A DNA stretch of 64,000 nucleotides from an uncultured Methanoregulaceae archaeon (GTDB lineage: Archaea; Halobacteriota; Methanomicrobia; Methanomicrobiales; Methanospirillaceae): positions 1,952,001 through 2,016,000 of the forward strand of contig CAVTTL010000001.1 in the NCBI GenBank assembly GCA_963737635.1, given 5' to 3'. The first letter of the stretch is position 1. Each line of letters opens with the position of its first letter. Both the position numbers and the translations under genes were made by a program. Below, piece after piece: positions 17,565 to 40,078 of this stretch. Under the pieces are notes generated by a model. The model had not been told where the DNA came from. It saw only the letters and a list, made by a program, of their open reading frames with translations, and ran no database searches.

Positions 17565-17567
17565 CGG

Positions 17568-18470
17568 TTAGATCCTGTCCGGCAGGTTCATCCACTCTTC
17601 GTCTTTTCTGGCAGGCTTTGAAGGTTCCCGTTCTTTAGAGGGTAATTCAGGAGCCTCAGATCTTTCATTTGCCGGTAATGTCTGCTGGCGCTGTTCCATC
17701 ATGACCTCAATCATGTCCCGGTCAAGAGAGGAATCATTGGGAGACAGGATCCGGTTGAGTGCATACAGTTCAGAGACGAATTCATCCGGTCCAACCTCAT
17801 GTTCGTCCCCAAGATTTGCAGGCATCAGGCGAGAGATCTCCTTGATCTCGTCACAGGACTCCCGCGAGATATACCCCATGATACGATACGATTCGAGAAT
17901 GATATCAAGACGGTCGTGCCCGAATTTGCGAATGGCAGCATTGGTCCACTTGAAAAGTTTGTACACTTTCTGGAGCCGGAGTTTTTCATTGGCAAGCGCA
18001 TTCGGGCCGCCTTTATATCCGTTAGTCAGGAGCTGGGTCTTTATACGAGATATCATCTGCTCGTCCGGTATGTGTCTTTCCTCACTGGCAAGTTTGGAAA
18101 CTACTCCGGATTTTGATTCCTGATCTCCTTTTTTATTCGCCGCTTCAATGTTTTCCGTTTCCTGTTTAGCTTTTGCGGCGTCAAGTGTGGATTCCCGTGC
18201 CTCCAACGCCGCCTCTTTTGCATCCAGTGCTGCCTTTTTTGCGGCGTCTACGGAATCAGACGCTCCCCCTGACTCGGGAGTTCCTCCGGATGTGGTAAGG
18301 GTAAACGGATTCTCCATCTCATTCATCCGTTCCCTGATATCCATTAACAGACGCTTGATGGAGGTTTTAATAAGATCGACTTCCCGTTCGAGGTTCTGGA
18401 GCTTGACTTCGGGATCATCCTCAGAAGCTGCGGTGATGATATGGTCGACCTGTGTCTGATTTACCGCCAT
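17568..18470 (-). CDS. FlaC/D/E-like archaellum switch-complex protein
   Basis: N-terminal coiled coil ending ENPF; C-terminal 'KW...KFG...LDIILESY..MGYIS' resembles FlaD/E domain; lies between flagellins and flaG. Confidence 0.7.
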   Translation of the reverse strand: MAVNQTQVDHIITAASEDDPEVKLQNLEREVDLIKTSIKRLLMDIRERMNEMENPFTLTTSGGTPESGGASDSVDAAKKAALDAKEAALEARESTLDAAKAKQETENIEAANKKGDQESKSGVVSKLASEERHIPDEQMISRIKTQLLTNGYKGGPNALANEKLRLQKVYKLFKWTNAAIRKFGHDRLDIILESYRIMGYISRESCDEIKEISRLMPANLGDEHEVGPDEFVSELYALNRILSPNDSSLDRDMIEVMMEQRQQTLPANERSEAPELPSKEREPSKPARKDEEWMNLPDRI

Positions 18471-18497
18471 AGCATTTAATTATTTCCTGTTTTTAGT

Positions 18498-18512
18498 TAA
18501 TATACTTTCCTC
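18498..18512 (-). promoter_or_regulatory. Putative BRE/TATA for the accessory fla genes
   Basis: GAGGAAAGTATATTA about 28 nt upstream of ATG 18470. Confidence 0.3.
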
Positions 18513-18580
18513 AGAAGCACGAGGGTTTGCAGCGATTTTTTTCTGTTTTGGCGTTCAGAAACCGCTTTTTGGTAAATTCA

Positions 18581-18594
18581 ATAAAAAAAAGAGA
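18581..18594 (-). terminator. Oligo-T terminator after second flagellin
   Basis: TCTCTTTTTTTTAT immediately after flaB stop on the minus strand. Confidence 0.45.
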
Positions 18595-19200
18595 TTAGTA
18601 GAGTGGCTGGACTGCTGTCAGGCCACCGGGGATCGTCCTCTGAATCGGAAGGACTGCTCCTACTGACGGTTGGAAATTAATCGAGAAGATTGTGTTTGGT
18701 GTTGCCGTGGTAGGCAATCCAACCATCAGAATCATTTGAGCGTTGTTATCGAGCATGGCGCCCGTTGTTGCGTTATTAATTTTCTGTCCAATGCACCATG
18801 TGGAAGGAGCCGGTGTACCGGTAGTAGGACAGGTTCCGCTATCTGTCCCTATGCCTCCATAGGTCATATTTGCATTGTGGCCTCCGTTATTATCAGTATA
18901 GGATACCACCATTGTTGACAGATCGATGGGGGTGCCACCGGCAGTGAGTGCAACGGTGACATTCACATAGTCAAGATAGTCGTTACTTGTATCTTTAATC
19001 CCATAAGTATTCCCAACTTCTTGCAGGCTTGAACTGGCCTGTGCGACTCCCGTGTGGACTGTTGACTGTGCAGTCTGGGATGTGAAGAACCCGGCGCCGA
19101 GCACCACGTACGAGAATACAGCAGCAACGACTACGAATGCGATGAGAACGATGGCTGCTTCAAGTCCGGTGAATGCATTCTCTGAGTAAAGATTTCTCAT
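18595..19200 (-). CDS. flaB: Archaellin (archaeal flagellin) 2
   Basis: Class III signal peptide NA/FTGLEAAIVLIAFVVVAAVFSYVVLGAGFF; GGAGGGTGA RBS. Confidence 0.95.
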   Translation of the reverse strand: MRNLYSENAFTGLEAAIVLIAFVVVAAVFSYVVLGAGFFTSQTAQSTVHTGVAQASSSLQEVGNTYGIKDTSNDYLDYVNVTVALTAGGTPIDLSTMVVSYTDNNGGHNANMTYGGIGTDSGTCPTTGTPAPSTWCIGQKINNATTGAMLDNNAQMILMVGLPTTATPNTIFSINFQPSVGAVLPIQRTIPGGLTAVQPLY

Positions 19201-19215
19201 TTTTTTCACCCTCCT

Positions 19216-19800
19216 TTAGTATACCTCATACCATGTATTTGCCGTCATTCCTGCAGGAACCGTCCTCGCAATCGGAAGCGCTGCACCGATCGGGGGATTC
19301 ACCTGAACAACAAATTGGGTATTGACACCCAGATCTGATGATCCGAGATTTGGTGCAACAGTTACAAGGACCATCTCACGGGGATTGAGTAATCCGGCAT
19401 GGGCAGTCTGACCGAGATCTATCGGGGTATTTTGTTGAACCCACGTGTAATTGACGCTAGCATTGGTAAAGGTCTCTACCTGTGTAGGAGTGGAAACCGT
19501 ATACGTCACTTTACTCATATCCACAGCATTACCACCCGCAGCAAGCTGAAGGTAGAAGGTAATATTCGCAATACCAGTACCATCACTGTCGGATTGTACA
19601 CTTACCGGCCCGGATGGTTCCACTGCCGATGTAGCCTGGCTAACACCTGTGTGGACAGTCTGCTGTGCCTTCTGCGTCGTGAAGAACCCGGCGCCAAGCA
19701 CTACGTATGAGAACACCGCCGCGACAACAACGAATGCGATGAGCACAATCGCTGCCTCGAGGCCAGTGAACCCTTCATCGTTATGTTTATACGAACTCAT
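19216..19800 (-). CDS. flaB: Archaellin (archaeal flagellin) 1
   Basis: EG/FTGLEAAIVLIAFVVVAAVFSYVVLGAGFFTTQK; GGTGA RBS. Confidence 0.95.
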   Translation of the reverse strand: MSSYKHNDEGFTGLEAAIVLIAFVVVAAVFSYVVLGAGFFTTQKAQQTVHTGVSQATSAVEPSGPVSVQSDSDGTGIANITFYLQLAAGGNAVDMSKVTYTVSTPTQVETFTNASVNYTWVQQNTPIDLGQTAHAGLLNPREMVLVTVAPNLGSSDLGVNTQFVVQVNPPIGAALPIARTVPAGMTANTWYEVY

Positions 19801-19870
19801 GAATTCACCTTCGTAGATTAGTAGACACTAGTCGGTACCAGCGTCTCTTATTGTTAAAGAGTATTTAATC

Positions 19871-23771: not shown

Positions 23772-24754
23772 AAGCAGCGCTGATCGGTCTTGGGTCAGTA
23801 GGACGCGGCGTTGGAGAGATGATTGCGAAAAAAAATCACGGCATCACGATCACAGGAGTTGCAGACTCAAAGAGCGGTTCTATCTGCGACGAAGGTATCG
23901 ATATCGAGGAAGTACTCGAACAAAAACGTACCAAAGGTATCTGCGGGAACCAAGCGATCACCGCAGTAGACGTAATCCAAAAAGCGGATTATGATGTCCT
24001 TATTGAAGTGACGCCGACAAATGCGCTTACCGGCGAACCGGCGCTCGGGTACATTCGGGCAGCTCTTGCACGAAAAAAACATATCGTTACCTCGAACAAA
24101 GGCCCAATCGCCCTCGCGTACCATGATTTGTCTGCCCTTGCAAAAAAGAATCACGTTGCACTCCGGTATGAGGCAACAGTCGGCGGCGCTATTCCCATCA
24201 TGCATACAATCGAAGACGGCCTTTCAGGTAACGAGATTCTCGCGATCTACGGGGTTCTCAATGGGACGTGTAATTATATCCTGACCCGGATGGCTGCCGA
24301 AGGTCTTACCTACGAGCAGGCACTCCTCGAGGCACAGGAAATGGGCTTTGCCGAAGCCGATCCGACGTATGATGTGAAGGGAATCGATGCCGCAATAAAA
24401 CTGGTAATCCTGGTTAATACCATCTGGGGAGATGGGATCACATTGTCCGACATTGACCTAACCGGTATCGATCTGCTCACGCCGGATGCACTGCGCCTTG
24501 CAGAAGAGGGCGATAGCACCATCCGGTTGATTGCCGAAGCAATCCCGAGAGAAAAGATCCTCCGTGTTTCACCCCGTCTTATCGAAAAAAGTCACCCCCT
24601 TGTAGTTGACGGTGCATTAAACGCACTTACCCTTGAGACCGACATGGCAAAGGAGATCACTTTGATTGGTAAAGGTGCAGGATCGATCGAAACGGCGAGC
24701 GCCATTATAGGCGATATTCTGTATATCCGCGACCATTATGGCAAGCGTGCTTGA
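23768..24754 (+). CDS. hom: Homoserine dehydrogenase
   Basis: GLGSVG, VTSNKGP, YEATVGGAIP, NGTCNYIL, EADPTYDVKGIDAAIK, GAG. Confidence 0.93.
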   Translation: MKAALIGLGSVGRGVGEMIAKKNHGITITGVADSKSGSICDEGIDIEEVLEQKRTKGICGNQAITAVDVIQKADYDVLIEVTPTNALTGEPALGYIRAALARKKHIVTSNKGPIALAYHDLSALAKKNHVALRYEATVGGAIPIMHTIEDGLSGNEILAIYGVLNGTCNYILTRMAAEGLTYEQALLEAQEMGFAEADPTYDVKGIDAAIKLVILVNTIWGDGITLSDIDLTGIDLLTPDALRLAEEGDSTIRLIAEAIPREKILRVSPRLIEKSHPLVVDGALNALTLETDMAKEITLIGKGAGSIETASAIIGDILYIRDHYGKRA

Positions 24755-25845
24755 ACATCGGCGAGAATACCTGCGCCTGATGCGCCGGTTTACTCAGGAT
24801 GCCGGATTTTTTACCGTTACTGACATCCAGAAGGCGGCAGGAATCCCGAGAAGTACGGCCCAGGACTGGGTTACGCGACTTGTTCGGGAAGGATGCGTCC
24901 TTCTAAAAAAAGAGAGATCAGGAAGAGCTCCCGCCCGATATGCTGCCCTTTCTGCAATCCCGCAGAGTACCTGCCGGAGGATCTTTACCACGACGGATGG
25001 CAATCGAGTCGAGATCTTCCATGATTGCATGAGCGGTGCCTGTGCAGACTTTCTGCGGTTACCATCACACCCGTGCGGGGGGAGTGGTGACTGCAGTGAA
25101 ACGCGACGGGACGCTCCTGAGGGAGTGTGCCCGTATAGGCGATGCCCTGGTCTCTATTGGGCTTCCTCCGCATTCCGCCGTTGGGATCTCCGGCGTCAGC
25201 CATATAGGCGATCATATCGTCCAGCACATTCGTTGTATTGGTGGCCCGGCATACTCGCTTACCGATATGATGTCGCGGGCGGAGGGTGTTATTCAGGTTG
25301 AACTCAGTCAGGCCGGGGGAATAGTAGAAGGGAATGTCTGGACCCAGGCACTCACCCATCTTACCATTGGGGTTGATGATACCGATTCAAAGGCAGGCGG
25401 TGCGACGTTTGCCCTCGCGCTTGCACTGCTGACGCAGATATCGGCAGGAAGAACCGTGCTCCCGATAAGTCATCATGTCGTGATGCTTAACGAGAAACTC
25501 GTGAACAAAACTACCGGTAACTCGGCAAGTTACATCGAAGTCGCCGTTCACCCTTCCCGTATCGAGTGGGTAGTGGCAAAGAGCCGCGAGTTTGTTGAAA
25601 ACGAGACCCTTTCACCCGAGTGGGGGCTCGCGTTTCTTAAAGGAATGACTATTCCTTCAGACCTGAGAGAGTATGGAAGAAAGGTGAGGGAAGACGTGGT
25701 CGACCGCGCCGTGGCCGAGGTGGTGGCACAGCGATCCGGGGCAATGCTCTTCGGTGGCAACGGTGTTATCGGAGCACTCGGGGCCGTCGCTCTGGCCAGG
25801 CTGCCGCACGAGATCCAGCTGGATCCGGCAAGAACCGTTTTTTGA
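24738..25845 (+). CDS. N-terminal HTH fused to methanogenesis marker 11 / TiaS-FLD-like domain (indel near 25050)
   Basis: wHTH (FTVTDIQKAAGIPRSTAQDWVTRL), then IGVDDTDSKAGGATFAL, KTTGNS and GNGVIGALGAV motifs. Confidence 0.7.
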
Positions 25846-25852
25846 ATCATAT

Positions 25853-26030
25853 GTTATGCGCTGTGTATTTCAATCCCACCCAGTGATCCATTATCGGAAG
25901 AATATGCGGTCCGAATACGGAGATAGGTGGCAAGTCTCCAGCAACAACATCGAAGTTACCCGTTTCCATCCGATTGCGATTAAAGTAATGAAAAAAATCG
26001 GGATCGGCATCCTCAACAACGTGACAAATT
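25853..26030 (+). pseudogene. Decayed arsenate reductase (ArsC/LMW-PTP-like) fragment
   Basis: MRSEYGDRWQVSSNNIEVTRFHPIAIKVMKKIGIGI resembles the ArsC segment after the P-loop (G-D-R-x-E-V-x-S-A-G...V-H-P-x-A-I-x-V-M-x-E-x-G-I-D-I); catalytic CxxNxxRS loop and C-terminus not intact. Confidence 0.45.
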
Positions 26031-26151
26031 CCTGTAAAGAAGCGATTATATTCATGAAAAGGAATACACCTCGTATAACTCCAGCACTCACATAAGGCCG
26101 CGTTGGAATAGATTAAAAAAACGTGAAACCCTCGCGTTGTAGGTAGGAGGT

Positions 26152-26796
26152 ATGTTGAGCAGCAAATCCATGAATCTCCTCGTTCAATCCCTGATGGAAG
26201 GGAACCGCACGGATGCAATTAGCGAAGCGGATAAACTCATACGTGCTGGTGTTGGGCGCGAGGAGATTATTTCCGGTGGTATCGAGACGGCCATGAAACG
26301 TCTGGAAACGAAATGTACGCTCGATCAGTTTAATCTCCTTGAGATTATGGTTGCGGGCCGGGCCGTCATGGATGTTATGAAATTCCTGTACCCGGCAGGT
26401 GCCGCTCTTCCGTCCACTAAGGGCACTGTAGTGATTGCAACTCTTGAAGGGGATGTACATGATCTTGGAAAGAATATCCTCAGGTTTATTCTCATAACTG
26501 ATGGATACCGGGTCGTCGATTGCGGCCGGGACTGCCAAGTTGCGGCGCTCGCAGAGACTGCGGAGAAGGAGGGGGCCATAGCTGTTTGTGTCAGCGGCTT
26601 GATTACCACGGTTATCCCGGCAGTCAGACTGGTGAGAAGCAGCCTCGCCGCCCGTAGTCTCACCGGTGTACGGATTATCGCAGGAGGGGCAGCGCTCAAA
26701 CAGGCCTCTGCGAAGGCACTTAATGTGGATTTCGTTTGCGATTCGGCATTCGATGCGACCAACTGGCTCGATAGGATCCGGGAGGCGGATACGTGA
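26152..26796 (+). CDS. Corrinoid (B12-binding) protein, MtaC/MtbC-like
   Basis: Helical cap plus Rossmann domain with GDVHDLGKN (DxHxxG), VSGL and IAGG. Confidence 0.9.
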   Translation: MLSSKSMNLLVQSLMEGNRTDAISEADKLIRAGVGREEIISGGIETAMKRLETKCTLDQFNLLEIMVAGRAVMDVMKFLYPAGAALPSTKGTVVIATLEGDVHDLGKNILRFILITDGYRVVDCGRDCQVAALAETAEKEGAIAVCVSGLITTVIPAVRLVRSSLAARSLTGVRIIAGGAALKQASAKALNVDFVCDSAFDATNWLDRIREADT

Positions 26797-27806
26797 ATAG
26801 TATTGAGCGCATCACCGCAACCGTGAATGGAAACTCGACCGACAGGGTGCCGGTCGTCGCGCAGGTCTTCGGCCATGCCGCTGCAATAAATGACGAAAAA
26901 CTCGGAGCATACCTTAGGGATGGGAGCACTCTTGCCCGGTGCCAGATCGCGGCTCTCGAACGGTACGGGTACGATGCCGTCTTTGCGCTCATGGACGTGT
27001 CAGTTGAAACCGAAGCCGCAGGATCCGTTCTCACCTATTTCGATGACCGGTATCCCGTTATCAAATCGTACGCTCTCACGGATGCCTGTCATCTTGACCG
27101 GCTCCACCAGCCGGATCCTGAACGAGATGGCCGGATGCCAGAGCTGATTCGGGCTGCACGAATACTCCGTGAAGAGGTTGGCGGGGAAACTCTTGTGGTG
27201 GGGTGCGTGCTCGGACCTCTTACGATAACCACCCAATTGCTCGGGATGGAGAAGGCATTATTCCTTGCCGTCGATGACCCGGACCTCTTTGAGGGGATTC
27301 TTGACTTTGCGACTGAAATTGCAATCTCGTTTGGCAAAATGCAGCTCGATGCTGGCGTGCATCTCCCCTTAGTCTTCGATCCTTCATCATCGCCGGTAGT
27401 AGTCCCGCCACAGTTCTTCCGGGAGTTTGAACTCCCCCGCCTCCGGAGGATCTTCTCTGCTTTTAGGACGAGCGGATCGGCAGCAAACTGGCTTCACATT
27501 GCCGGGCCGTCTGCTCCTCTCCTACCTTGGTACCCGGAGGCGGGCGTAGATATCGCGAACTTCGATTACCAAATCAGCGCTAAAGATGCTGCACATGCTC
27601 TTCCCGGAACCTGCCTTGATGGGAATATTAAATCCTACTCGTTTGTTTCTGCGTCCCCCCGCGAGATTGCTCTTGAATCACAGAACCTTCTTGATGCATT
27701 TTCCAAACGCCGGGGATTCATCCTCTCTTCGGGATGCGAAATTCCACCGGAGGCAAAGTCAGAAAACGTAGCCGCCATGGTCAGTGCCGTGCGGGAAAAA
27801 AGGTGA
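26793..27806 (+). CDS. MtaA/CmuA-like methyltransferase (UroD superfamily)
   Basis: DRVPV, ERYGYDAV, VETEAAG, GRMPELI, GPLT, DGNI, FILSSGCEIP; GTGA overlap with corrinoid gene. Confidence 0.85.
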   Translation: MNSIERITATVNGNSTDRVPVVAQVFGHAAAINDEKLGAYLRDGSTLARCQIAALERYGYDAVFALMDVSVETEAAGSVLTYFDDRYPVIKSYALTDACHLDRLHQPDPERDGRMPELIRAARILREEVGGETLVVGCVLGPLTITTQLLGMEKALFLAVDDPDLFEGILDFATEIAISFGKMQLDAGVHLPLVFDPSSSPVVVPPQFFREFELPRLRRIFSAFRTSGSAANWLHIAGPSAPLLPWYPEAGVDIANFDYQISAKDAAHALPGTCLDGNIKSYSFVSASPREIALESQNLLDAFSKRRGFILSSGCEIPPEAKSENVAAMVSAVREKR

Positions 27807-27809
27807 CCT

Positions 27810-29418
27810 GTGCCAGTCCTCATGGTTTGTTCCGGTGAACGGACAGTTGAGATAGATTTTACTCCCGGGTTGTCCCTGCGGGAGATACTCGAAGCAACAG
27901 AAATTCCGATACGGACCGGATGCAATGGGAATGGTTCCTGCGGCCTCTGCCGAGTCAGGATCACATCCGGCAAGGTACAGGATCCCTCGCAACAGGAGAT
28001 GCTGGTCATCAATAGCAGCCGTAGCGAGGCAAAGGACGTACGGCTGGCGTGCTACGTTCGTCCTGAACTCGATCTCGGGATCGAAATATGCGGGCCTGCC
28101 CAGGATGCGACATGGAAGATTTTTCCATGTAACCATACAGGGGATATGCTGGTAAAACCTGTATTGGCGGCAACAGAAATGGAAAGCGGCAACTGCAGGG
28201 GCGCATATGGCGTGGCTGTTGACCTTGGGACATCCCAAATCAGCATCTCCATTCTCGAATTAGATACCGGAAGAAGGATCGCGGGCCGGTACGGGACGAA
28301 TCCGCAGGCCGCTTTTGGCGCCGACGTAATGACCCGTCTGGTGGCAGCGACCGGCTCCGTGGAAAAAGCTCGAGCTCCTTCGCACCCGGGTCGTTCATGC
28401 CATCGGCGACGGGCTCGCGGACATCGCCAGCCGGAACGGGGTCGACCTCGCCCGGGTGACCCGACTTGTGCTCGTAGGAAATACAGCGATGCTTGCCCTG
28501 CTCTCTGGGAGAAACTACCCCCTCCTTATCCGGCGGATACGTGGACGGGTACGATCGATTGTCTCCCTGATGAGACAGCCCCTATGGCAGCTGAATGGGG
28601 GATTCATTCTGCAACGATAGATGTCCTGCCGCCGTTCGCCGGATTTGTCGGTTCGGATCTTCTCGCGGGAGTGCAGGCAACCCGGATGATGGAGCTTGAC
28701 AGGCCGGCACTCCTCATTGATTTTGGCACTAACTCCGAAATCGCCCTCTGGGACGGACACAACCTCTTCCTAACCTCAGCCGCCGGCGGACCAGCGTTCG
28801 AAGGGAGCGGCATGCAGTGCGGCATGCCGGCTGAGGCGGGTGCTATCTGCCAGGTCCGATTCCGGAGCCATGGAGCAGAATGCGCGACGATCGCTGGTGT
28901 TCCGGCCCGCGGGATCTGTGGTACCGGTCTCGTTGACCTTATTGCCAACCTTCTCAGAGCCGGGCATTCTGTCAGAGAGGGGCCGTTTCTCACCGGATCA
29001 CAACGGCGTTTTTGTCCTTATAAACGGTGATTTACCAATCGTTCTTACCGGAAAAGATGTCGACCTTTTCCAGCGGGCCAAAGCTGCAGTCGGTGCGGGT
29101 GTCCAGTATCTGATGGAGCGTGCAGGCATCAGCAGCGATGAACTCGAGCGTCTGTATGTCAGTGGAACGTTTGGCAGCAATCTCGATACTGGCAACGCCC
29201 GGACGATCGGCCTCCTCCCGATGATGAGGGATGACCGGATTCGGCTCTGCGGAAATACAGCTTCTGCCGGCTGCGAGCAGGTTCTCGTTGATCCGACAGC
29301 AGTCAGAAAACTGGAAACGGTCAGGCAATCGGCAAGAATCGAAAACCTCGCCGGACTCCCGGACTTCGACAATCTTTTCCTCGAGAATCTGTACCTGCGG
29401 CCGCTGGGGGGTGCCTGA
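27810..29418 (+). CDS. ASKHA/RACE (DUF4445) ATP-dependent corrinoid reductive activator with N-terminal [2Fe-2S] (3 indels)
   Basis: CNGNGSCGLC...RLAC, AVDLGTS, NPQAAFGADVMTR, FVGSD, IDFGTNSE, AGGPAFEG, GICGTG, SGTFG; compensating indels near 28372/28532 and one near 28967. Confidence 0.85.
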
Positions 29419-29421
29419 ACC

Positions 29422-31679
29422 ATGGATAACCGTAGTCAAGATCATACTGATTATTTCAATACCTTCATCAGGACCGCCCAATATATTACGCACCTTACTC
29501 CACAGCAGGATATCCTAACTGAAACCGGGAATGCGCTTGTCAGGTTCTATGGAGCAAACACCGTCGGTTTCTTCGAGCAGCCCAACGGCAGGAAATTGAC
29601 CGGGCATCACTGGATTCTCCCCGATGGAATCGTGCCGGCACGGTTTATGACCCATGAGATCCAAGGTGTGGTCGCTGAAGTAATGGAGACCGGCTTCCTT
29701 GCAACCCACCGGATCGAGCCGGAGGGGTTATCAGCAGTTTTCCTTCCCATTATGTGGGAAAGTAAGATCATGGCCGTGATGACGGTCGCGCACAAAACAC
29801 CCGGTCCGTTGCAGGATGAGCTTCTCAACTCCTATCTCGCGATTTCAGGCCTTGTCAGCACTGCGGTCTCATCAGCGGTCGTATCCTTCAATACTATCGC
29901 CGAGAAAAAGCGTGCCGAAGAGTCCCTGAAAGTGGCTCGGGAGAATCTTGCATTCCTTGTCAAAAACACTCCTGCCATGCTTTACCGGTTCCATGCTTCG
30001 GGTGATCGCGCGGTGACATTCATATCAGAGAACGTCAGAGACCAGCTCGGGTGCGAGCCGGAAGCGTTCATGGACAACCCTGCATTCTTTGAATCACGCA
30101 TCCATCCGGACGATCGGGTACAGATCCAACAATGCGTAGAGAATGCACTTTCTGCCGGCGCGGCCACAGTCGAATACCGGTTCCTCAGAAATGATGGTAC
30201 ATGGCGCTGGATGCATGACGAGATGCGACCGATCAGAAGCAAAACCGGTGAACCCGCCGAACTTATCGGGTACTGGATTGACATCACCCAGAAGAAGAAA
30301 GTGGAGGAGACACTGGTCCGGAATAATGAGGAGCTCTCAGCGCTTAACGAGGAACTCAACGCGATCAACGAGGAACTCACTGCAACTCAGGAAGAATTGC
30401 GCCAAGCCAACGATGAACTTGCCAAGAACGAGCAGGATCTTCTCCGGAAGAACGATGATCTTAGAATGATTAATGAGGAACAAATCGCGATGCAGGAGGA
30501 ACTCCAGCAGAACAATGAAGAGCTCTTAAAGCTGAGCGTGCGCTCAGTGAGACAGGACAGTACCTGGACAACCTCATCAATTACGCAAACGCTCCTATTA
30601 TCGTATGGAACCCGCAGTTCCGGATCACCCGGTTCAACCACGCATTTGAGCGTCTGACCGGGCGAGCCGCTGAAACCGTAATCGGCCGGTCGCTTGATAT
30701 CCTCTTTCCCGAGGACCGGAAGATAGAGATGATGACGAAAATCCGCAGCACCATTTTGGGTGAGCAATGGGAGTCGGTCGAGATCCCAATTCGGCATTTC
30801 GATGAGAGTGTCCGGATTGTGCTCTGGAACTCCGCAACGCTTTTCCGTCCTGACGGGAAGTCTGTGTTGTCGGTCATCGCACAGGGCCAGGATATCACCT
30901 TAAGAAAACGTATCGAGGCGGATCTGGTACTAAAGAACAAGGAACTTACCGATGTAGAGCAGGAACTCCGGCAGAACGTCGACAAGCTTGCCGCAAGTGA
31001 GCGAATGCTCATAGAGAACGAGGCGAAACTGAGGGAGGCTCTTGCTGAAAAAGATGTTCTGCTTGCCGAAATCCATCACCGGGTCAAGAACAACCTCACG
31101 GCGTTCATCTCCCTGCTCAGTCTCGAAGGTTCTACAGAAGATACGCCCACCGGGAGGCTGCTCAGACAGGACCTGCAGAACCGGGCACGGAGCATGGCGC
31201 TCATCCATGAGACGCTCTACCGGACCAATAAGTTCGATGAAGTTGACGTGGGAGTTTACCTGACAACGCTTGTCGGCCAGATAGCAAATTCATTCAGAAC
31301 CACCCCATCCGTAAAAACACTCATTGACGCTCACGGCGTAATGCTCGATTTACCACGTGCGACACCATTGGGGTTAATTGTCAACGAATTGGTGACAAAC
31401 TCGTTCAAGTACGCATTCCCTGATTCCTTCGATGTTGAGGCAATCCGTAACGCTCCACCCACCATCGCGATCGCGCTTGCAAAAGAAGATGGGACGTATA
31501 TCCTGTCCTTCGGGGACAACGGTGTCGGGCTGCCTACCGGCATCGATCTCACAAAGACCCAGACCCTCGGTCTGAAACTGGTGAACTTCCTCGCGCGCCA
31601 CCAGCTCCGGGCAAAGATTGAGGTCAATTCAGAAAACGGGGTGGAGTTCGTGTTCAGATTCCGGGAAAACGGGGAGTAA
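29422..31679 (+). CDS. Cytoplasmic GAF-PAS-coiled coil-PAS histidine kinase (HisKA_2 type; indel near 30529)
   Basis: No TM; GAF-like N-terminus, PAS (IHPDD, YRF...DGTWRW, DIT), second PAS (LDNLINYANAPIIVWN after frame repair), EIHHRVKNNL, NELVTNSFKYAF, DNGVG, TLGLKLV. Confidence 0.88.
30322..30525 (+). repeat. Heptad NEEL coiled-coil repeat inside the kinase gene
   Basis: NNEELSALNEELNAINEELTATQEELRQANDEL...NEEQIAMQEELQQNNEEL; AACGAGGAACTC recurs at 21-nt spacing. Confidence 0.7.
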
Positions 31680-31928
31680 GGTAAGGTATGCGAACTACAT
31701 CCCTTCTCGCTGGGAAAGGTAACGGTCTGATTGCCATGCACCTGACCCCCTCGCACTGATTCAGCCATCACGTCAGGTTTTTCCTGTATTTTGTCAGCCG
31801 GAGATCCTTGACACTTAATTTCACGTCATTCCTTTAATACCCATGAAAAACTGCCCGCTCGGCAAATACGCGTGGATTTTTTCTCCAAAGAATGAAGGAG
31901 AGAACGCCAAGCCGGTCTTTTTTTTGTT

Positions 31929-32581
31929 TTACGCAATGAAGTCTTCGGCGATCATTCTGCAGAGCCGGTTACTCTCTGCAAGAAATCCCGGGGTTTCCCT
32001 GAGTATCGTATCCCGGATTGCAGGATCAATGTCCCGTGTCCATTCCTTGATTATCGCATCGGTAAGTTCGAGATGGAACTGAAGCCCGAGCGCTGTTTTG
32101 TAAGCGAACGCCTGGTGCATTACCACACTCCCGGTGCAGAGCAAGTTGGCACCGGTCGGGAGATCAAACGTTTCCCCGTGAAGCTGGAACACCGAAAACT
32201 GCTCCGGGAAGCGTGAGAACGTGCCGGTCGCCCCCGACTCACGGGTGAGCCTGCACCAGCCGGTCTCCTGCTGGAAAGGATAGACCCGGGCACCAAACGC
32301 TGATGCAATCAGCTGGGCCCCAAGGCAAATGCCAAGGACCGGCCGGCCTTTCTGCACCATATCCCGGATCAGGGCCTTCTCCTCCGAAAGATACGGTAAT
32401 TCTTTCTCGTCGTTGACACTCATTGGCCCGCCCATGAACAGAAAGTGGGTGGCATTGATTGTGGGCACTCCACCGGTCTCGTAGAGCCGGATATATTCAA
32501 AGGGAATCCGGCGTCCGGCAAAAAACGCTTCGAAAAAACGGCCGGCTCCGAGGCAGTATGCTGGAATATGGCAACCTTCGT
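31929..32581 (-). CDS. Type 1 glutamine amidotransferase (indel near 32540; start uncertain)
   Basis: KVAIFQH...E N-terminus, GGPMSV, LGICLGAQ, QFHLE catalytic triad motifs. Confidence 0.82.
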
Positions 32582-32703
32582 GTACTCACCTTCAGGAAAT
32601 CTTAGTTACTGCCCTCATAGACTGCCAGCCACCGGCCGTTCATGCACTATCTGTCCTCCTGTTGTAACAAAAAAAAATCCGTGAGAGAATCGGCTCGGCA
32701 GGG

Positions 32704-34542
32704 TTATCTCCCATGAGCACCCCCGCCACCAAAACCACCGCCGCCACCGAATCCTCCTCCGCCAAAGCCGCCTCCCCCAAAGCTGCCGCCGTACCCGCCG
32801 CCGCGAGGCATGGCCGTAAACATCAGGATCGGGATAAATGCATAGCTCATCCCGACGACACCGACCGGGACCCCGGTATCGGCGATGTGGATATTGAGCG
32901 ATTTCATTGCCGATTCGACTTTTTCACCGACCCCAAGAGCAGTACCGTACACCAGCCAGTCCCCCCACATCGAGAGATCGGACGGGGCATACTTCTGGAT
33001 CATCGCCATATCCGAGAGGAAATGGGTAAAAGAATCCCATTCGAGCTTGTCCTTGTAATGATCGTCTGTCCAGTGTCCGAACAAGGCGGGCGGCGTTGAG
33101 AACGCAAGAAATGCCTGGAGGCCAACGATACCCCAGAGAACGACGGCTGGATAGAGAATGGAAGCCTGCATGGGTGCCACAAGAGCGATAATGACCGTGA
33201 TGCCAAAGGCAACGATGCCGGTAAACAGCAGCGGCAGGATGTTATCTCTCCCATCTACGATATACCGGTAGGCAAGGGCTGCGTCGGCCCGGGAAGTGAT
33301 ATCGGAGAGCAGCCGCTGGACCCGCAATGCCTTTCCTTCTGCTTCAAAGCCGGTCCGGGCTTGTGCCGCCAGCTCCCCGAACTTCCCCGTGTCGAGCACA
33401 CCGTTATCTGACACCTGATCGATAAAGGCAAGAACCCGCAGTTCATAGGGGTCGGTCGTTGCAGCCGAGAGTTTCCGGATCTCGACACCTTTTTTGTCTC
33501 CCTTGTCGGTGATCATAATCATTTTTTTCCGGTGCAGGTCAAGAAGGGTGGCGTAAAAACCATCCTTATCAAACTCCATCGCATCACCCTTGAAGAGCAG
33601 GTTTACCTGCCACGGTTTCATCGACGGATCCGGAATTGTGCTGAGATACGCCGGGACGACAAAGGTCTTCTCCCGCCCGTACTTCTCGTAGATGAAAAGA
33701 AGGACAAACGGCGTGAGGATCACGGCTGCCATTCCCAGGTATTCGAGGAACCACGCGATATAGTAGGGGAAGTCGTACCAGAAGCTCCCGGAAGAGGTAC
33801 TTCCAGCAAGGCCCTCCACGTTGTTCCTGAACCCGGGGATCGCGTCGAGCCCGCCGGGAGTCGTGAGCATCTCCACCGCGATATTTTCATCGGCCGCAAC
33901 ACTGCCGGTAAACGTATACGTGTCACGGGTCTTCTCCACCGAAAACCCAGGGGGATAGGCATATACCTGCATGACACTGGTGGCAGGGACAGAAATTTGG
34001 ACTGACTGGTAGGGTATATGACTTGCGCCCGCCAGCAGGAGATTCAGGTGATCGTTTGCGGCGTCGTACTCGACCGGGGGATGGATCACGTACGTGTACC
34101 CAACCGTATAGGACCCTGCATCAAAATACGCCGGGTCGTAGATCCCGACTTCATCGGTATCCGCGAGATATCCTACCTGGCTTGAGACTGAGGAGCGGGC
34201 ACCGGGGGCCGCGATATAGACATTTCCCGTATAATCTTTCGCGTACCCAATTGTTCCCGCCGGCGCATCAATTCCAACCAGCTGGATGGACGACTGGTTG
34301 GCCGCCGCAAAGGTCAGCGGCGCTTCCCAGCTCCGGTAAAGCATCCGGTATTCGCCGGACGTGCCAACCGCATAAGTATACGTCTCATGGAGGGTGCCGT
34401 TTGCATAGAGTATTGCCGAGTACGAACTGGCGACAAGATCTCCCTGGAGCATGGGAGGAATGGCAACCACTGCAGCCAGACCGATGATACCTATTACAAG
34501 CGTGGCAATGACAAGCACGGCAATCTGTTTCGTTTCGCTCAT
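32704..34542 (-). CDS. DUF2207-family membrane protein
   Basis: Extracellular domain, TMs, W..F..FL.D...WLVYGTALGV, Gly-rich tail; follows lemA. Confidence 0.85.
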   Translation of the reverse strand: MSETKQIAVLVIATLVIGIIGLAAVVAIPPMLQGDLVASSYSAILYANGTLHETYTYAVGTSGEYRMLYRSWEAPLTFAAANQSSIQLVGIDAPAGTIGYAKDYTGNVYIAAPGARSSVSSQVGYLADTDEVGIYDPAYFDAGSYTVGYTYVIHPPVEYDAANDHLNLLLAGASHIPYQSVQISVPATSVMQVYAYPPGFSVEKTRDTYTFTGSVAADENIAVEMLTTPGGLDAIPGFRNNVEGLAGSTSSGSFWYDFPYYIAWFLEYLGMAAVILTPFVLLFIYEKYGREKTFVVPAYLSTIPDPSMKPWQVNLLFKGDAMEFDKDGFYATLLDLHRKKMIMITDKGDKKGVEIRKLSAATTDPYELRVLAFIDQVSDNGVLDTGKFGELAAQARTGFEAEGKALRVQRLLSDITSRADAALAYRYIVDGRDNILPLLFTGIVAFGITVIIALVAPMQASILYPAVVLWGIVGLQAFLAFSTPPALFGHWTDDHYKDKLEWDSFTHFLSDMAMIQKYAPSDLSMWGDWLVYGTALGVGEKVESAMKSLNIHIADTGVPVGVVGMSYAFIPILMFTAMPRGGGYGGSFGGGGFGGGGFGGGGGFGGGGAHGR

Positions 34543-34552
34543 CGTACTTCCT

Positions 34553-35134
34553 TTAGAACTCGATCTTCGGGGGTGTTATTATTTCTTCTTCGAACTGGAG
34601 GTACTCCAGCTTGGGCATGCCGGTCAGGTGCCCGATGAAACTGGAAGGGATCGTATCCATCATTGTATTGAATTCCTGTGAAATAGAATTGTACGTATAA
34701 CGATGGCGGGCGATCTCATCTTCGAGACTTTTGACCGAGTCCATGAGTGAGGTGACGCTCTGGGAGGTCTTTAAATCTGGATAGTTTTCTGCGACGGCAA
34801 GCAGCCGCCCGAAGATCGAACGTGATTCTGTCTCCACTTTTGCCAAATCCCCCGGCCCGGCGGTCGCAACGGCAGCCCTCATAGCGGTGACACGGGTGAA
34901 GGTTTCCTGTTCGAATTTCGCATAACTTTTTACTGCGCCAAGCAGCTGCTCGATCATGTCCAGTCTTTTCTTCATTGCAACCCGGATCTGTCCAAGAGTT
35001 GCCTCGGACGAATTTTTCAGAGTATAGAACCGATTGTATATGCCAATGGTCCTTGCAACGATCCATATGATAAGAACGATAATGATCAGGACGATAATAG
35101 CCAGCACTATCCAACCAAGAATATCCCCAAACAT
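34553..35134 (-). CDS. lemA: LemA family protein
   Basis: N-terminal [27 protein letters not shown]. Confidence 0.9.
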
Positions 35135-35387
35135 GGTTCTTCAGTATACTGATAATCGCGCCACTACATAAGACATGATGTGGCGGAAGAAGTCACGGGA
35201 AAATCCGATCCACGGATTATCTATGAGACGTGGATTGAAGTGACGGGAGTTTATCAAAACGGATTGGCGGGGGATAGTCGGCGTTGAATACCATATTGGA
35301 TCTCTTTGTGCCCCTAGTTCCTCCATGCAAATATTAATATAAAGTAAAGCGGGGAGTATACAATCACCGGTTAAAGGATGGAAGAAA

Positions 35388-36809
35388 ATGGGGGAAGTAA
35401 AAAAAATCCTCATAGTAGAAGACGATGCCCTCATCGCGATGAACCTCGTGGAAACACTCAACAGTTTCGGGTATGCAACTGATACTCCTGTTGCCACCGC
35501 AGAGGATGCCATTCTTCAGGCCCGCACGGCTCCTCCTGACCTGATCCTTATGGATATCCAGCTCGCAGGAAAAATGACCGGGATTGAAGCGGCAGGAATC
35601 ATACGAAGCACACACGACATCCCGGTGATTTATCTCACCGCATTCTCCGACGACGAGCGTTTACGCAAAGCCATAAACACGGTTCCATATGCGTACCTCA
35701 TCAAACCCGTCCAAAACCAGGAACTGCGATCATCCATTGAAGTGACTCTTTACAAGCATAGTATGGATAAAGCGCTCCGGGAAAGCGAGAAGCGATATCA
35801 TGCAGTCATTACCCAAGCTATGGAGGGAATCATCTTTTTTGACATTACGACCCTCGCCATCATCGAGACTAACCCAGCAGTAAGGAACGTGTCCGGGTAT
35901 ACCGAGAAAGAACTTGAGTCTATGAAAATCTCAGATCTGATGCCGTACTCTTTTAGGATCACCGACACTATGATTGCAAAGCCTGATAGTGAACAGCCTG
36001 TTCAGCTCGGGGAGCAGAAATTCCTCTGTAAAGATAAATCGCTTCTGGATGTGGAATGCAGTGTTAGCTTCATCCGGCATAGCGAAAAAAATATGACGGT
36101 CTGCCTCATCGCACACGATGTGACCGAACGTAAAAAAGCAGAAACAGCCCTTTGCGAAGCCAACAAAAAACTCAATCTTATGGGTGAGATCACCCGTCAT
36201 GATCTTCTCAACCAGATCATGGCACTGAAATCATATTTCCAATTCTCAAACGAATACGTTAAGGATCCCGTTCATGCCGCCCTCATAAAAAAAGAAGAAG
36301 ACATCATCAGAACCCTCGAACGTCAGATCACCTTTACGCGGGATTATCAGAATATGGGATTGAAACGGCCGGTATGGCAGAACGTGGCAGAAATGATGGA
36401 CAAAGCGATAGCAGAGCTTCCGGCCAAAAAGGTTAAGATCGACGCTGGTCCCCGGGATCTCGAAATATTTGCAGACTCGCTCTTCGAGAAAGTATTTTAC
36501 AACCTGATCGACAACTCGCTCAGATACGGCAAAGACCGCTTGACTTCCATCCGGATTTCATCCTCCGAATCTGGAGCCGGACTTATCTTGACCTGCGAAG
36601 ACGATGGTGTCGGCATTCCCGATGACGAAAAGGATAAGATCTTCCATCGCGGGTTTGGGAAAAACACCGGACTTGGATTATTTCTTGTCCGGGAGATCCT
36701 CGGGATCACCGGGATGACTATTCAGGAAAATGGCGTTCCCGGTAAAGGTGCCAGGTTCGAGATCAAGGTCCCAAAAGGGGGGTACCGGTTCACAAAAACA
36801 CAACAATAA
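35388..36809 (+). CDS. Hybrid REC-PAS-histidine kinase
   Basis: REC (VEDD, LMDIQL, KP), PAS, ITRHDLLNQ, NLIDNSLRYG, DDGVG, GLGLFL. Confidence 0.9.
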   Translation: MGEVKKILIVEDDALIAMNLVETLNSFGYATDTPVATAEDAILQARTAPPDLILMDIQLAGKMTGIEAAGIIRSTHDIPVIYLTAFSDDERLRKAINTVPYAYLIKPVQNQELRSSIEVTLYKHSMDKALRESEKRYHAVITQAMEGIIFFDITTLAIIETNPAVRNVSGYTEKELESMKISDLMPYSFRITDTMIAKPDSEQPVQLGEQKFLCKDKSLLDVECSVSFIRHSEKNMTVCLIAHDVTERKKAETALCEANKKLNLMGEITRHDLLNQIMALKSYFQFSNEYVKDPVHAALIKKEEDIIRTLERQITFTRDYQNMGLKRPVWQNVAEMMDKAIAELPAKKVKIDAGPRDLEIFADSLFEKVFYNLIDNSLRYGKDRLTSIRISSSESGAGLILTCEDDGVGIPDDEKDKIFHRGFGKNTGLGLFLVREILGITGMTIQENGVPGKGARFEIKVPKGGYRFTKTQQ

Positions 36810-36934
36810 AGAGGGAATTCTGTTGCGTTGTCGGGACTTTTAAATAGGCGACCTTGATGAATCGCCACGGTATCATTTTCGGTAAGTTCCGTTAACGCAA
36901 CAGCACTGATAAGCAATAATCACATTTCTGACAT

Positions 36935-38530
36935 CTATCCGGTTGCGGGATTTTTAGACTGCGTGATCATCATATCATCGATACGGATGAGCATGATCGC
37001 AGTCTCGGATGCGCTTTGGATTGACTGGCGCTTGGACCGGAGCGGCTCAAGCACACCCTCGTGGAGCATATCGATGACCTCTCCTGTGTAAACGTTGAGG
37101 CCGGCCGTCTTCCCCCCTTCGCATGGGCGTTCTTTAGCGCGACCAGCTTGTCAATCGGGTCGTATCCGGAGTTTTCCGCAAGGGTTCGGGGGACTATCTC
37201 AAAGGCCGTCGCATATCCTTCGATTGCCATCTGTATCCGTCCCCCAATGGTCTCAGCGTAATTCCGGATCTTCATTAAGAGCTCGGTCTCTACTGCACCG
37301 CCACCGACTACATACGTGCCGTCTTCGATTGCATCCATAACCACGCGGGTGCCATCAACAACCGCCCGCTCCAGCTCGTCAAGAAGATAATCGCTCGTAC
37401 CCCGGAGCAGGATGCTGACAGTTTTGGGGTTCTTGCACCCGGATATCCGGGTGATGTCGATATCGCTGTCCTCTTCGACAACTTCGGCATGCCCCAGATC
37501 CTTTGCTGTCAGATCTTCTGGCTTGTTGACAATGTTTGCATCCAGTGCACGTGCTGCGTATTTGAGATCTTTTTCTGGAACGTCTTCAACAGCATACACA
37601 CCGTGCTTTTCAAGGAAGAACTGGACCGGATCTGCAATACCCTTCTGGCAGAGCACGACATTTGCACCTGAGCTGATCACGGAGTCGGCCAGTTTTTTTA
37701 AGGCAGAGCGCTCCTGTTCTGAAAATGCTGAGATCTGCTCAGCGGTCGTAATCTTTATCTTGGCCTTCACCTGGGTTTTTGCGATCTCCATGGGCATTGC
37801 GATGAGCGCTACCTTGGCCTCAGTGATCTTCTTTGGCATGCCTTCGGTTACCCGTTTCTTGTCAAGGATAACACCGCGAACGAGCTCGGAGTCATCTATT
37901 GACTTGCCCTTCTTCTTCTTGATCAGCACGTCGTCTTCATCGGCAACGTATTTTCCATCGGTCTTTTCTGCGATAGTCATGACCGCATCAACGATGATGC
38001 CGTCTAGTTTCTCCTTGACCGATTCGATCGATTTTCCCGTGATTGCGGTGTCGGCGATCTTGATGAGCGTCTTTCTGTCGGTAGGGTCGACCTTAAACGA
38101 AAGAGAATTTGTGATTTCGAGGGCTTTTTCCATACCTTGGCGGTATCCTTGGGAGATAACGGTTGGGTGGATTCCCTGTTCGAGCAGTTTTTCTGCCTGC
38201 TCCATCAAGGCACCGGCAATAACAACTGCAGTCGTGGTTCCGTCTCCGACCTGATCATCCTGGGTCATTGCGACTTCGACCATCATCTTTCCGCCAGGAT
38301 GCTGGACCGAGAGCTCACTCAGAATTGTCGCTCCATCGTTTGTTATGACAATATCTCCCGTTGAGCCGACAAGCATCTTGTCCATACCCCGGGGACCAAG
38401 GGTAGTCCGGACTGCACCGGCAATTGCCTTTGCAGCCATAATATTCGAGTGCTGGGCTTCCTGCCCGCGATTTCGCGTTGTTCCCTGACTGATAATGATA
38501 ATTGGCTGTCCGCCAAGTCTGTTGTGACAT
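36935..38530 (-). CDS. ths: Thermosome (group II chaperonin) subunit (indels near 38518 and 37112)
   Basis: [33 protein letters not shown]; repaired ends [12 protein letters not shown] and [17 protein letters not shown]. Confidence 0.92.
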
Positions 38531-38781
38531 TTCTAACCTCACTGTTTTTATTTTTGATATTCCGGCGAAAGCCGTTCCTGTAACGGGCAAGAGTTGCTTC
38601 GTAGCCTCTTATGTCTATCTGTAGTACCCGCTTCTAGGATTGTATAAACCCGGAACGCAAGGTTGCCGTACACCCGACGTAGAGGAGGCGAGGCTTTTTA
38701 TGCAACACACGCCGTGTTTATCGTCTCGTAACATGCCTTTACCATGCACGGGTAAAGATCCGGTCCTGACGAGGATACTAC

Positions 38782-39239
38782 TTAGGCAAAATCAGTCAGT
38801 TTGGACTTGACTGAAGTTCTTTGCTTATTTCCATTATGGCCTCCCAAGGGGAAAATGCAGTTCGTGTTCCCGCGCCGGGGTTCAAGTTTTCTGGTCCCAT
38901 CGGTCTGCATGATCATGACCATTTCCGGTCATCAGCCGGAGTATCAGGATCCTCTGCACGCAGTCCACTCCTCACCAGAACCGTGTTGCTATCCTGCTGC
39001 TGTGGAGCGGTCTCATCAACAGCAACAGCATCGCGAACCGGGGAACCCTGTACAATTATCTGAGGAGATTTAGGTTCCTGGGGATTTTGATCTTTGGAAT
39101 GCTTGGACAGTCCCCTGTTAACGGCTTTGAGATCCAGAAGTTCCCGCGTGAATCCATCCACGAGCGCTTCCATCTCAATGACCTTCTTTTCAAGTGCTGC
39201 AATGCGGCCCTCGCTTGCATCACTACCAGCGTTTTCCAT
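38782..39239 (-). CDS. Hypothetical coiled-coil protein (indel near 38928)
   Basis: RIAALEKKVIEMEALVDGFTRELLDLK heptads; continues after a frameshift as MVMIMQTDGTRKLEPRRG...DFA*. Confidence 0.55.
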
Positions 39240-39499
39240 AAGTGTGATTATCTTCTCCTTTTCATCACGTTCACATTCGGGATACCTGATCTTTTGTATC
39301 CAACGGAACGATGACCAACAATAGTACCTATTGGTGCAGCCCACTCCTTATAGTAACAGGTAACAATTCAGTCAGTCAGATGGACACATTGCCGGGCAAA
39401 GGGATTTTTCCCGAAAACCTCAACAAGGGATACGAACTGCAATCAGGCCAACGGGTACGATCAATACTCCTATCAGTCAATCCATACATAGAGATATAC

Positions 39500-39646
39500 A
39501 TGTCAGGTTATGTGAAAGATCATATTTTCATCTGCCCACATTGTGATCTCAAGTGGCGCACAACAGAAATCACCCCGAAACTGCATTGTAAGCAATGTAA
39601 ACGCGATTTTCTAAACCCTTGGGCGGCGCCTGCGCCGAGAAAGTAG
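39500..39646 (+). CDS. Small zinc-ribbon protein (48 aa)
   Basis: MSGYVKDHIFICPHCDLKW...LHCKQCKRDF, two CxxC motifs. Confidence 0.6.
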   Translation: MSGYVKDHIFICPHCDLKWRTTEITPKLHCKQCKRDFLNPWAAPAPRK

Positions 39647-39829
39647 TTCATTCGACGCGGCCCCAGTGAAACACCATACTATCAGGGTTCCTACCGACCA
39701 TTTTCAATTTTAACCCCGTAATTCAGCAATATACTCGTTATTTGCACAGCATTGAGGCCTACATCCATTATCTGCAGAGCACACATACCTGCGCCCGTCT
39801 TTCCAAAAAAATTAATTTTCGACAGTAAC

Positions 39830-40078
39830 CTATAATGGCACAACCACGTGTGAATAATTCGTCACAGGCACTTTCCGGTGGTGTATATGAGAAACGATCT
39901 CACCGCCGAGGATGAGGAGAGCGTCTCTGTGGACCATTTTATCTTTATGAATATGGCTTGGAGTGATTTCAAGGGAATCGTACCGCTCCGTAAGGATTTC
40001 ATCATTGAGGATGTCTTTGAAATATATCTTGACGAGGATCATCAACATGTGGAGATGCAGTATCTCTTCCTTTTTCAC
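39830..40078 (-). CDS. UPF0058 family metal-binding protein
   Basis: MKKEEILHLH...YDSLEITPSHIHKDK..H motif. Confidence 0.75.
   Translation of the reverse strand: MKKEEILHLHMLMILVKIYFKDILNDEILTERYDSLEITPSHIHKDKMVHRDALLILGGEIVSHIHHRKVPVTNYSHVVVPL

Follow-up and report, generated by a model that had tools for sequence, protein, structure and literature searches.

A corrinoid methyl-transfer gene trio followed by a private GAF sensor domain suggests a B12-based sensing system in anaerobic bacteria and archaea

Why should genes for corrinoid-dependent methyl transfer be tied to a sensor kinase? The question is raised by a cassette of four genes in the genome of an uncultured Methanoregulaceae archaeon, located in a stretch of 64,000 nucleotides that was analysed as a whole and is referred to below as the window (assembly GCA_963737635.1, contig CAVTTL010000001.1, positions 1,952,001 to 2,016,000). 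The cassette encodes, in this order, a corrinoid protein (CP), a methyltransferase (MT) of the UroD superfamily, an ATP-dependent reductive activator of the RACo/RACE type (hereafter RACo) and a cytoplasmic histidine kinase with an N-terminal domain of GAF fold (Table 1). An initial annotation, made from the letters of the window alone, had proposed that the cobalt or methyl state of the corrinoid protein is read by the kinase. The analysis of homologous loci reported here suggests an undescribed B12-based sensing system common to many anaerobic bacteria and archaea. We consider it probable that the four genes form a self-contained and horizontally mobile sensory cassette, in which the trio of CP, MT and RACo serves as the input device and the GAF domain as its reader.

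An MT-anchored scan, with one genome per species, yielded 77 loci, whose gene order was read by tblastn with pieces of the window. Judged by their titles, these loci span approximately ten phyla, the carriers being found in Nitrospirota, Thermodesulfobacteriota, Chloroflexota, Pseudomonadota, Acidobacteriota, Bacillota, Campylobacterota, a spirochaete, Methanoregulaceae and Promethearchaeota; for Sulfuricella sp. T08, Candidatus Chloroploca and Methanosphaerula palustris there are records of a named strain or isolate. Five loci end too early downstream (L018, L063, L080, L085 and L088), leaving 72 with room for a fourth gene. The same GAF subfamily was encoded directly downstream in 68 of these 72, in the order CP, MT, RACo and GAF protein or, in five loci, with the GAF protein directly after MT, and the outputs behind the GAF comprised 33 histidine kinases (seven of them hybrids with a receiver, and one of HisKA_2 type), 13 GGDEF proteins, 12 proteins with HD_5 (HD-GYP), four with PAS domains only and six that were cut or unassigned. 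Three further loci have a different signalling protein in the GAF position, namely a Tll0287-like domain with GGDEF in L054, a GGDEF protein in L078 and a PAS-HisKA-HATPase protein in L079, the N-terminal parts of the latter two having no Pfam family; only the degraded-looking locus L052 has no signalling protein downstream. The prediction that the trio is consistently followed by variable outputs sharing this N-terminal GAF was thus borne out, and the pattern named beforehand as its refutation, trios accompanied by a substrate-specific first methyltransferase (MT1) and lacking signalling genes, was not seen: MT1 is not conserved, and a signalling protein is present in 71 of the 72 loci.

When the 821 open reading frames (ORFs) of these loci were clustered, four families occurred in 63–73 loci each and the next one in ten, with no conserved MT1, MtrH-type transferase, transporter or response regulator/DNA-binding family around the MT anchor. 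The median spacing is −4 nt from CP to MT and +3 nt from MT to RACo, and from the upstream stop to the start of the sensor gene it is 0 nt (interquartile range −3 to +5; 68 loci). The tight coupling of the four plus-strand genes described for the window, one GTGA overlap and two 3-bp gaps, was read in the same way: the CP/MT junction is ACGTGA, where the GTG start of MT overlaps the TGA stop of CP, and the following junctions are TGA-CCT-GTG (MT/RACo) and TGA-ACC-ATG (RACo/kinase).

The association was also approached from the opposite side. A profile of the GAF subfamily, searched against 1.84 billion representative proteins, gave 387 matches at E ≤ 0.001 (340 at E ≤ 1e-10 and 227 at E ≤ 1e-30), and the domain was N-terminal in almost all of the best 150 of these 387. 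A Pfam tally of the best 80 of the 387 comprised 49 kinases (HisKA, HisKA_2, HisKA_3, hybrids and one with Hpt), six GGDEF proteins, one GGDEF protein with HD_5, two HD_5 proteins, one SpoIIE protein, 11 with PAS or GAF domains only and ten without any family; none of these 80 was a fusion to a B12 or URO-D domain. Exactly one strong match to the subfamily per genome was found in six of six genomes (the genome of the window and those holding L068, L058, L034, L066 and L022), and it was always the cassette copy. A metagenome scan with a narrower GAF alignment (A5), which reaches GAF relatives 39–100% identical to L036, gave 68 GAF-anchored loci, 63 of them with at least 500 nt upstream. RACo or MT lay within 200 nt upstream of the GAF in 62 of the 63, the exception being a match of 29 residues, and among the loci with at least 3.6 kb upstream CP and MT were present in 29 of 29 and all three genes in 28 of 29.

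The association of trio and GAF is too tight, widespread and exclusive to be due to chance. The data show that it is near-absolute in both directions, that the outputs vary and that the genes move as a unit. A single private input domain that precedes exchangeable outputs is what marks a sensory module, and we therefore read the trio as the input device. Both association tests therefore support B12-based sensing as initially proposed, and the remainder of that proposal, i.e. a GAF that reads the cobalt or methyl state, is what we infer from them, together with contact between GAF and CP, the direction of information flow and the nature of the stimulus. In the mechanism that we propose, CP would be the sensing element, its cobalt cofactor moving among Co(I), Co(II) and methyl-Co(III). 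A methyl group would be written or erased by the UroD-type MT using a small methyl donor or acceptor, and RACo, with ATP and a low-potential electron, would restore Co(I) from oxidised Co(II). The dedicated N-terminal GAF of the fourth protein would read the state of this couple, most likely by direct contact with CP or with a CP-MT complex, and would pass it to whichever output the host has, a HisKA_2 kinase in the Methanoregulaceae archaeon and, in other carriers, a kinase of classical or hybrid type, a cyclase (GGDEF), a phosphodiesterase (HD-GYP) or a phosphatase (SpoIIE). As the stimulus we would rank first an O- or S-compound that carries a methyl group, or the demethylated form of it, second an oxidant attacking Co(I), e.g. 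O2 or N2O, and third light cleaving the Co-CH3 bond.

The putative reader is recognisable by fold. The kinase had been annotated as a soluble GAF-PAS-PAS HisKA_2 protein, and Pfam recovers both PAS domains, HisKA_2 (75.5 bits against a cut-off of 22.3) and HATPase_c (29.4 against 26.4), which makes it a HisKA_2 kinase with the order cassette-specific GAF, PAS_3, coiled coil, PAS, HisKA_2 and HATPase_c; its largest Kyte-Doolittle mean over 19 residues is 1.62, i.e. there is no strongly hydrophobic stretch. The GAF, however, has no Pfam match at E ≤ 0.01 in the first 170 aa of the window kinase, a weak one being found in the relative L061, and it is the structural model that shows the GAF fold. 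The AlphaFold2 model of this N-terminus (predicted local distance difference test, pLDDT, 91.8; alignment of 41 relatives) matches the solved GAF domains 3p01, 3ci6, 4g3k and 6oap (Foldseek E of about 1e-7, probability 1.0), GAF domains are topmost among its 255 PDB matches at E ≤ 0.001, and every one of the closest Atlas clusters is a GAF cluster. The most conserved residues are Q20 and Y21 in the first helix, G91-F92, P109 and Y138-L139-A140, with Q20, Y21, F92 and P109 conserved in 97–99% of 151 rows; in the model the invariant surface helix would fit a protein contact. Two other identities of this domain were rejected: the model is an alpha/beta GAF and not a globin, which rules out a photoglobin, and a role as Cys methyl acceptor is ruled out by the lack of Cys in the window domain and in 50 of the 151 family rows. 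No PocR domain was found in the window kinase by Pfam.

The candidate sensing element, CP, has a four-helix cap and a Rossmann B12-binding domain with the motif DVHDLG (His-on). It scores 55 bits for Pfam B12-binding and 102.5 bits, against a cut-off of 215.3, for TIGR02370 (methyltransferase cognate corrinoid proteins). Among 31 rows the G, D, H, L and G of the DxHxxG region are invariant; the cap helix KCT.EQFNLLEIM..GRA, including Cys55, is invariant as well. The AlphaFold2 model (pLDDT 88) has the fold of MttC, MtmC (template modelling score 0.72), MtaC and MetH and also that of B12 photoreceptors, the two groups matching about equally well (E-values of 5e-14 for MttC 7xcn, 6e-13 for the photocobilin 8j2w and 4e-13 for the MerR-family cobalamin-binding domain 8jbt). 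The likeness to 8jbt and 8j2w speaks for a special case of the sensory reading, in which the cassette would be a regenerable methylcobalamin photoreceptor: light would cleave the Co-CH3 bond of CP, RACo and MT would rebuild the dark state, and the GAF would report on it. In keeping with this, two Chloroflexota genera among the carriers, Chloroploca and Oscillochloris, are phototrophs. Furthermore, cobalamin-binding domains fused to diguanylate cyclase (DGC), GAF or helix-turn-helix (HTH) domains are predicted photoreceptors in a study of such proteins (PMC11796333). However, CP shares 23–26% sequence identity with MT-type corrinoid proteins and only 16–18% with CarH-type domains; MT-type corrinoid models score it at 80–102 bits, whereas the CarH equivalog gives 25 bits against a cut-off of 400, and CP has no HTH domain in its 214 aa, so that it does not belong to the CarH type. 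Besides, most carriers, judged by name, are from dark anoxic peat, sediment or groundwater, and we regard light as the physiological input as quite improbable.

MT belongs to the UroD superfamily, with a PF01208 score of 224.3 bits against a cut-off of 23.9 and coverage of residues 4–335, but stays under all NCBIfam cut-offs (MtaA_Meth, 112.7 against 400; MtbA, 99.6 against 600; TIGR01463, 156.1 against 235.4; PRK06252, 147.4 against 244). Its best solved relative is MtaA (4ay7, E 5e-25), in alignment with which LHICG becomes LHIAG and GCG becomes GCE. MT thus keeps the zinc-site His and the last Cys, has Ala at the middle Cys and departs from the His-Cys-Cys rule; the column of the middle Cys holds one residue, Ala in the window, in at least 80% of 73 family rows. 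Over the same rows His235 is conserved at 81%, Cys315 at 97% and an extra Cys, C274, at 97%. According to a study of the superfamily, His-Cys-Cys is the mark of S-methyltransferases and the loss of a Cys that of O-methyltransferases (PMC10418091). Homologues of MT number more than 1000, with identities of 62–79% for the best listed, and were named from Methanoregulaceae, Methanosphaerula, Nitrospirota, Desulfomonilaceae and others.

The activator has the N-terminal 2Fe-2S, RACo middle and ASKHA ATPase domains of the RACo/RACE family (Pfam, in two frames: Fer2, 41.7 bits; Raco_middle, 63.9; RACo_C_ter, 102.6 and 107.8). Its scores are too low for the models of AcsV (149 against 800) and RamA (67 against 500), and it is of the 2Fe-2S type, not of the RamA type. 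Natural fusions join the members of the trio, seven of CP with MT (P0271–P0277) and one of MT with RACo, a single ORF of 885 aa in a bacterial locus (L054:1838-4492); they support a predicted complex of CP, MT and RACo. RACo-type genes occur elsewhere in the same genome: a second one (Fer2, Raco_middle and RACo_C_ter), split over three frames, lies in the window at 42277-44200 (−), directly downstream of a cdh operon for carbon monoxide dehydrogenase/acetyl-CoA synthase (44445-51218, −), in a region with a G+C content of 0.59–0.61 as compared with 0.48–0.53 on both sides, and a third, intact one was found at C1:1768030-1769952.

Several observations weigh against the sensory reading. In MT the middle Cys of the zinc site typical of S-methyltransferases (His-Cys-Cys) is missing, so that its chemistry may be a different one. 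RACo is not a constant member, the GAF protein directly following MT in five of the 68 loci (L035, L036, L045, L050 and L056) and several metagenome loci having no RACo between MT and GAF (e.g. L093, with 4.4 kb upstream of the GAF). L054, L078 and L079 use another N-terminal domain, and the link is therefore not strictly through the cassette GAF. It should be noted that all loci were found by similarity to MT or GAF and thus represent one orthologous group with many close kin, e.g. ten Sulfuricella. No CP-GAF fusion was found among seven long CP relatives, a blank that is weak evidence. Finally, a GAF domain can bind a small ligand on its own.

The main competing explanation, which we consider unlikely, is a small metabolic or detoxifying methyl-transfer system, in which the GAF would bind the substrate or product, the output would regulate expression or behaviour, and the UroD enzyme would perform both half-reactions. 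One enzyme that carries out both is MtsA, and CP-MT fusions exist. There are precedents for kinases in such a role: the PocR kinase MecA with the regulator MecD beside MecE/MecB/MecH (10.1101/2021.08.30.458270), and MsmS and RdmS, which regulate methyl-sulfide genes (PMC6944256); likewise, a UroD protein with a corrinoid protein and RACE, without a tetrahydrofolate (H4folate) methylase, has been proposed for methyl-sulfur or methyl-selenide metabolism (PMC10418091). A substrate sensor of this kind fits poorly with the loci themselves, which have no transporter, second methyltransferase, DNA-binding partner or response regulator in common, and in which 25 of 68 outputs make or break cyclic di-GMP (c-di-GMP) instead of controlling a single operon. 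Outside the cassette the GAF subfamily was not found (six genomes and the metagenome scan), and the stop-start coupling suggests a stoichiometric complex. In addition, MT is the only URO-D gene of the host genome (90% complete), in which neither the MtaB nor the MttB family was found and other B12-binding matches lie solely within larger ORFs. We therefore retain the sensory cassette as the preferred reading.

The letters of the window contain three frameshifts in the activator gene and one in the kinase gene. The initial annotation, correct as to coordinates and junctions, was silent on these four breaks, which taken at face value would indicate a decaying, non-functional island in which activator and kinase are pseudogenes and their adjacency is meaningless. 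Logan contigs of four of four runs (X1, X2, X3 and X7, from four studies, one of them possibly the source of the window itself; compared stretch 24500-44400) carry one-base differences at 28371, 28533, 28962 and 30523, and with these four applied both ORFs are open, at 535 aa for the activator and 752 aa for the kinase. Because the contigs of all four runs differ from the window at exactly these places and the ORFs then open, the breaks are assembly errors, activator and kinase are intact in nature, and the pseudogene reading is rejected. Moreover, the compared stretch contains at least eight further indels (25048, 32538, 37111, 38518, 38567, 38654, 38785 and 38928), with five more counted; by Pfam, indels of the same kind split other genes of the window (TiaS, a HI0933-like gene at 54976-56291, an MFS gene at 62842-63925 and the second RACo), and the gene order of the cassette is kept in more than 130 loci. 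Decay is hence hardly credible. With so many one-base indel errors in the assembly, any pseudogene call in this genome needs a read check. Within 36837-40309 the contigs of some runs also showed joints, e.g. one in X1 that skips 3362 bases (36837 to 40200) and one on opposite strands (38618/40309), which are uncertain as their short sides are just 20–47 letters; between 38.9 and 40.7 kb there are short ORFs without Pfam matches.

The cassette is an insertion of approximately 6 kb relative to the closest complete genome of the genus (G020), where only 61 bp separate the TiaS gene from the amidotransferase gene, as compared with approximately 6.1 kb in the window. From this difference in the spacing of the flanking genes it follows that the kinase arrived together with the trio. 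Among other genomes, six of 200 from the family and two of 80 from the genus were found to have MT. In the MT tree the window groups with L018 and L021, two Methanoregulaceae rows (100/94), two other archaea are placed elsewhere and the bacterial phyla are mixed; as the tree is unrooted, no donor is named.

Table 1. Genes and domains of the cassette and its two flanking genes, in window positions
Feature	Position	Strand	Details
Corrinoid protein (CP)	26152..26796	+	214 aa; Pfam B12-binding + B12-binding_2
UroD-superfamily methyltransferase (MT)	26793..27806	+	337 aa; PF01208
RACo/RACE-type ATP-dependent reductive activator, N-terminal 2Fe-2S domain	27810..29418	+	535 aa after three one-base corrections
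Cytoplasmic sensor histidine kinase	29422..31679	+	752 aa after one one-base correction (~30523)
Cassette-specific GAF-fold input domain, kinase residues 1-170	29422..29931	+	AlphaFold2 model, Foldseek, family alignment
PAS_3 of kinase	30016..30273	+	Pfam, residues 199-284, 75 bits
Second PAS of kinase	30564..30893	+	Pfam, residues 16-125 of the downstream-frame ORF
HisKA_2 phospho-acceptor + HATPase_c catalytic domains	31068..31667	+	Pfam, 75.5 and 29.4 bits
Left flank, TiaS-like gene, split by assembly indels	24738..26095	+	
Right flank, class-I glutamine amidotransferase, convergent with cassette	31929..32468	-	

With TiaS upstream and the convergent amidotransferase downstream, the cassette is adjoined by no MT1, transporter or regulator, as had been noted from the sequence. 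Other signalling genes of the window include a receiver-PAS-HATPase hybrid protein at 35343-36809 (+), 3.7 kb downstream of the cassette kinase, and a chemotaxis cluster (CheD, CheC, CheA, CheB, CheY and CheF-arch) at 4404-19827 (−), which is adjoined within the same coordinates and on the same strand by archaellum genes (a FlaI-like ATPase, KaiC-like FlaH and several flagellins).

How does the cassette relate to systems already described? H-NOX and similar stand-alone sensors are haem proteins encoded in operons with variable transducers, which they control by contact, the signal being the binding of a gas; unlike the cassette, they have a haem cofactor and no enzymes that maintain the state of the sensor. 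MtaABC, MtsAB and the RACE-activated O-demethylases share with the cassette a cap-plus-Rossmann corrinoid protein with DxHxxG, a UroD-superfamily MT and an ATP-dependent activator. In contrast to them, the cassette has neither an MT1 (MtaB or MttB, not found in the host either) nor an MtrH-type partner, its MT has His-Ala-Cys where MtaA has His-Cys-Cys and remains below the NCBIfam cut-offs, and a signalling protein is its integral fourth member.

Closer in composition are the type 1 mlp clusters (Kountz and Balskus, PMC10418091), which combine an MtaA-like UroD protein with a corrinoid protein and a bacterial-type RACE, lack an H4folate methylase and are, like the cassette, widespread, horizontally spread and present in organisms not known as methylotrophs. 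By definition, however, they contain at least Mlp2 and Mlp3, have His-Cys-Cys sites and are mostly from Firmicutes (same source), whereas there is one UroD gene per cassette and per host genome, which places the cassette outside the mlp clusters. In that paper the words sensor, signal and GGDEF are absent, and the two occurrences of 'kinase' refer to metabolic enzymes. The mec cassette of dichloromethane catabolism (10.1101/2021.08.30.458270) also combines an MT of the MtaA/CmuA family, a corrinoid protein, a RACo and a sensor kinase, but with ten genes it is larger, and among them are those for an MtrH-type transferase, a transporter, a DNA-binding regulator, two further methyltransferases and a PocR-sensing kinase; none of these extra families is conserved around the MT anchor, and the present loci are thus not mec cassettes.

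Archaeal kinases with multiple PAS/GAF domains beside corrinoid methyltransferase genes are represented by MsmS and RdmS of Methanosarcina acetivorans, which sense redox state via haem or thiols and act on methyl-sulfide genes by way of regulators of non-REC type (PMC6944256). The cassette differs from them in its GAF, with no Cys in the window domain, and in an output type that varies between hosts. CarH, AerR, photocobilins and photoglobin-B12 likewise have a cap-plus-Rossmann B12 element in a sensory role, with HTH, DGC, GAF or kinase outputs, but they are single proteins or fused domains, and the passages on them in two papers, in which the word 'methyltransferase' occurs zero times and once, name no methyltransferase or activase partner (PMC11796333, PMC8717448). 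In the cassette, by comparison, the B12 protein is separate and is accompanied by enzymes predicted to be able to write and reset its state.

Full-text literature searches, from whose coverage most subscription journals and supplements are excluded, gave no description of the cassette. Two roles of cobalamin in signalling are known, that of a ligand sensitive to light, in the CarH family and photocobilins, and that of a ligand of riboswitches, and corrinoid methyltransferase trios are known only as metabolic enzymes. The cassette joins a corrinoid methyl-transfer cluster to a dedicated transducer, and would be a new kind of sensor if the mechanism of writing, resetting and reading holds. We consider it about as likely as not that it is the first signalling system with an enzymatic corrinoid cycle as input, written by a methyltransferase, reset by an ATP-dependent reductase, read by a GAF domain and moving as a four-gene unit.

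If this is true, phosphorelay or c-di-GMP signals in bacteria and archaea of approximately ten phyla would be generated from a methyl donor, from light or from an oxidant of Co(I) (O2 or N2O), and a trio bound to one private sensor domain across domains of life would be a sign of B12 chemistry put to a new use. The modular, resettable switch could also serve as a tool in synthetic biology. A function would be given to a UroD-family protein with more than a thousand homologues that is named in databases only as 'uroporphyrinogen decarboxylase'. The same reading would explain the presence of 'methylotrophy' genes without the remaining pathway in hydrogenotrophic methanogens, sulfur oxidisers and phototrophs, a point of importance wherever the methylotrophic potential of peat and wetlands is estimated by counting such genes in metagenomes.

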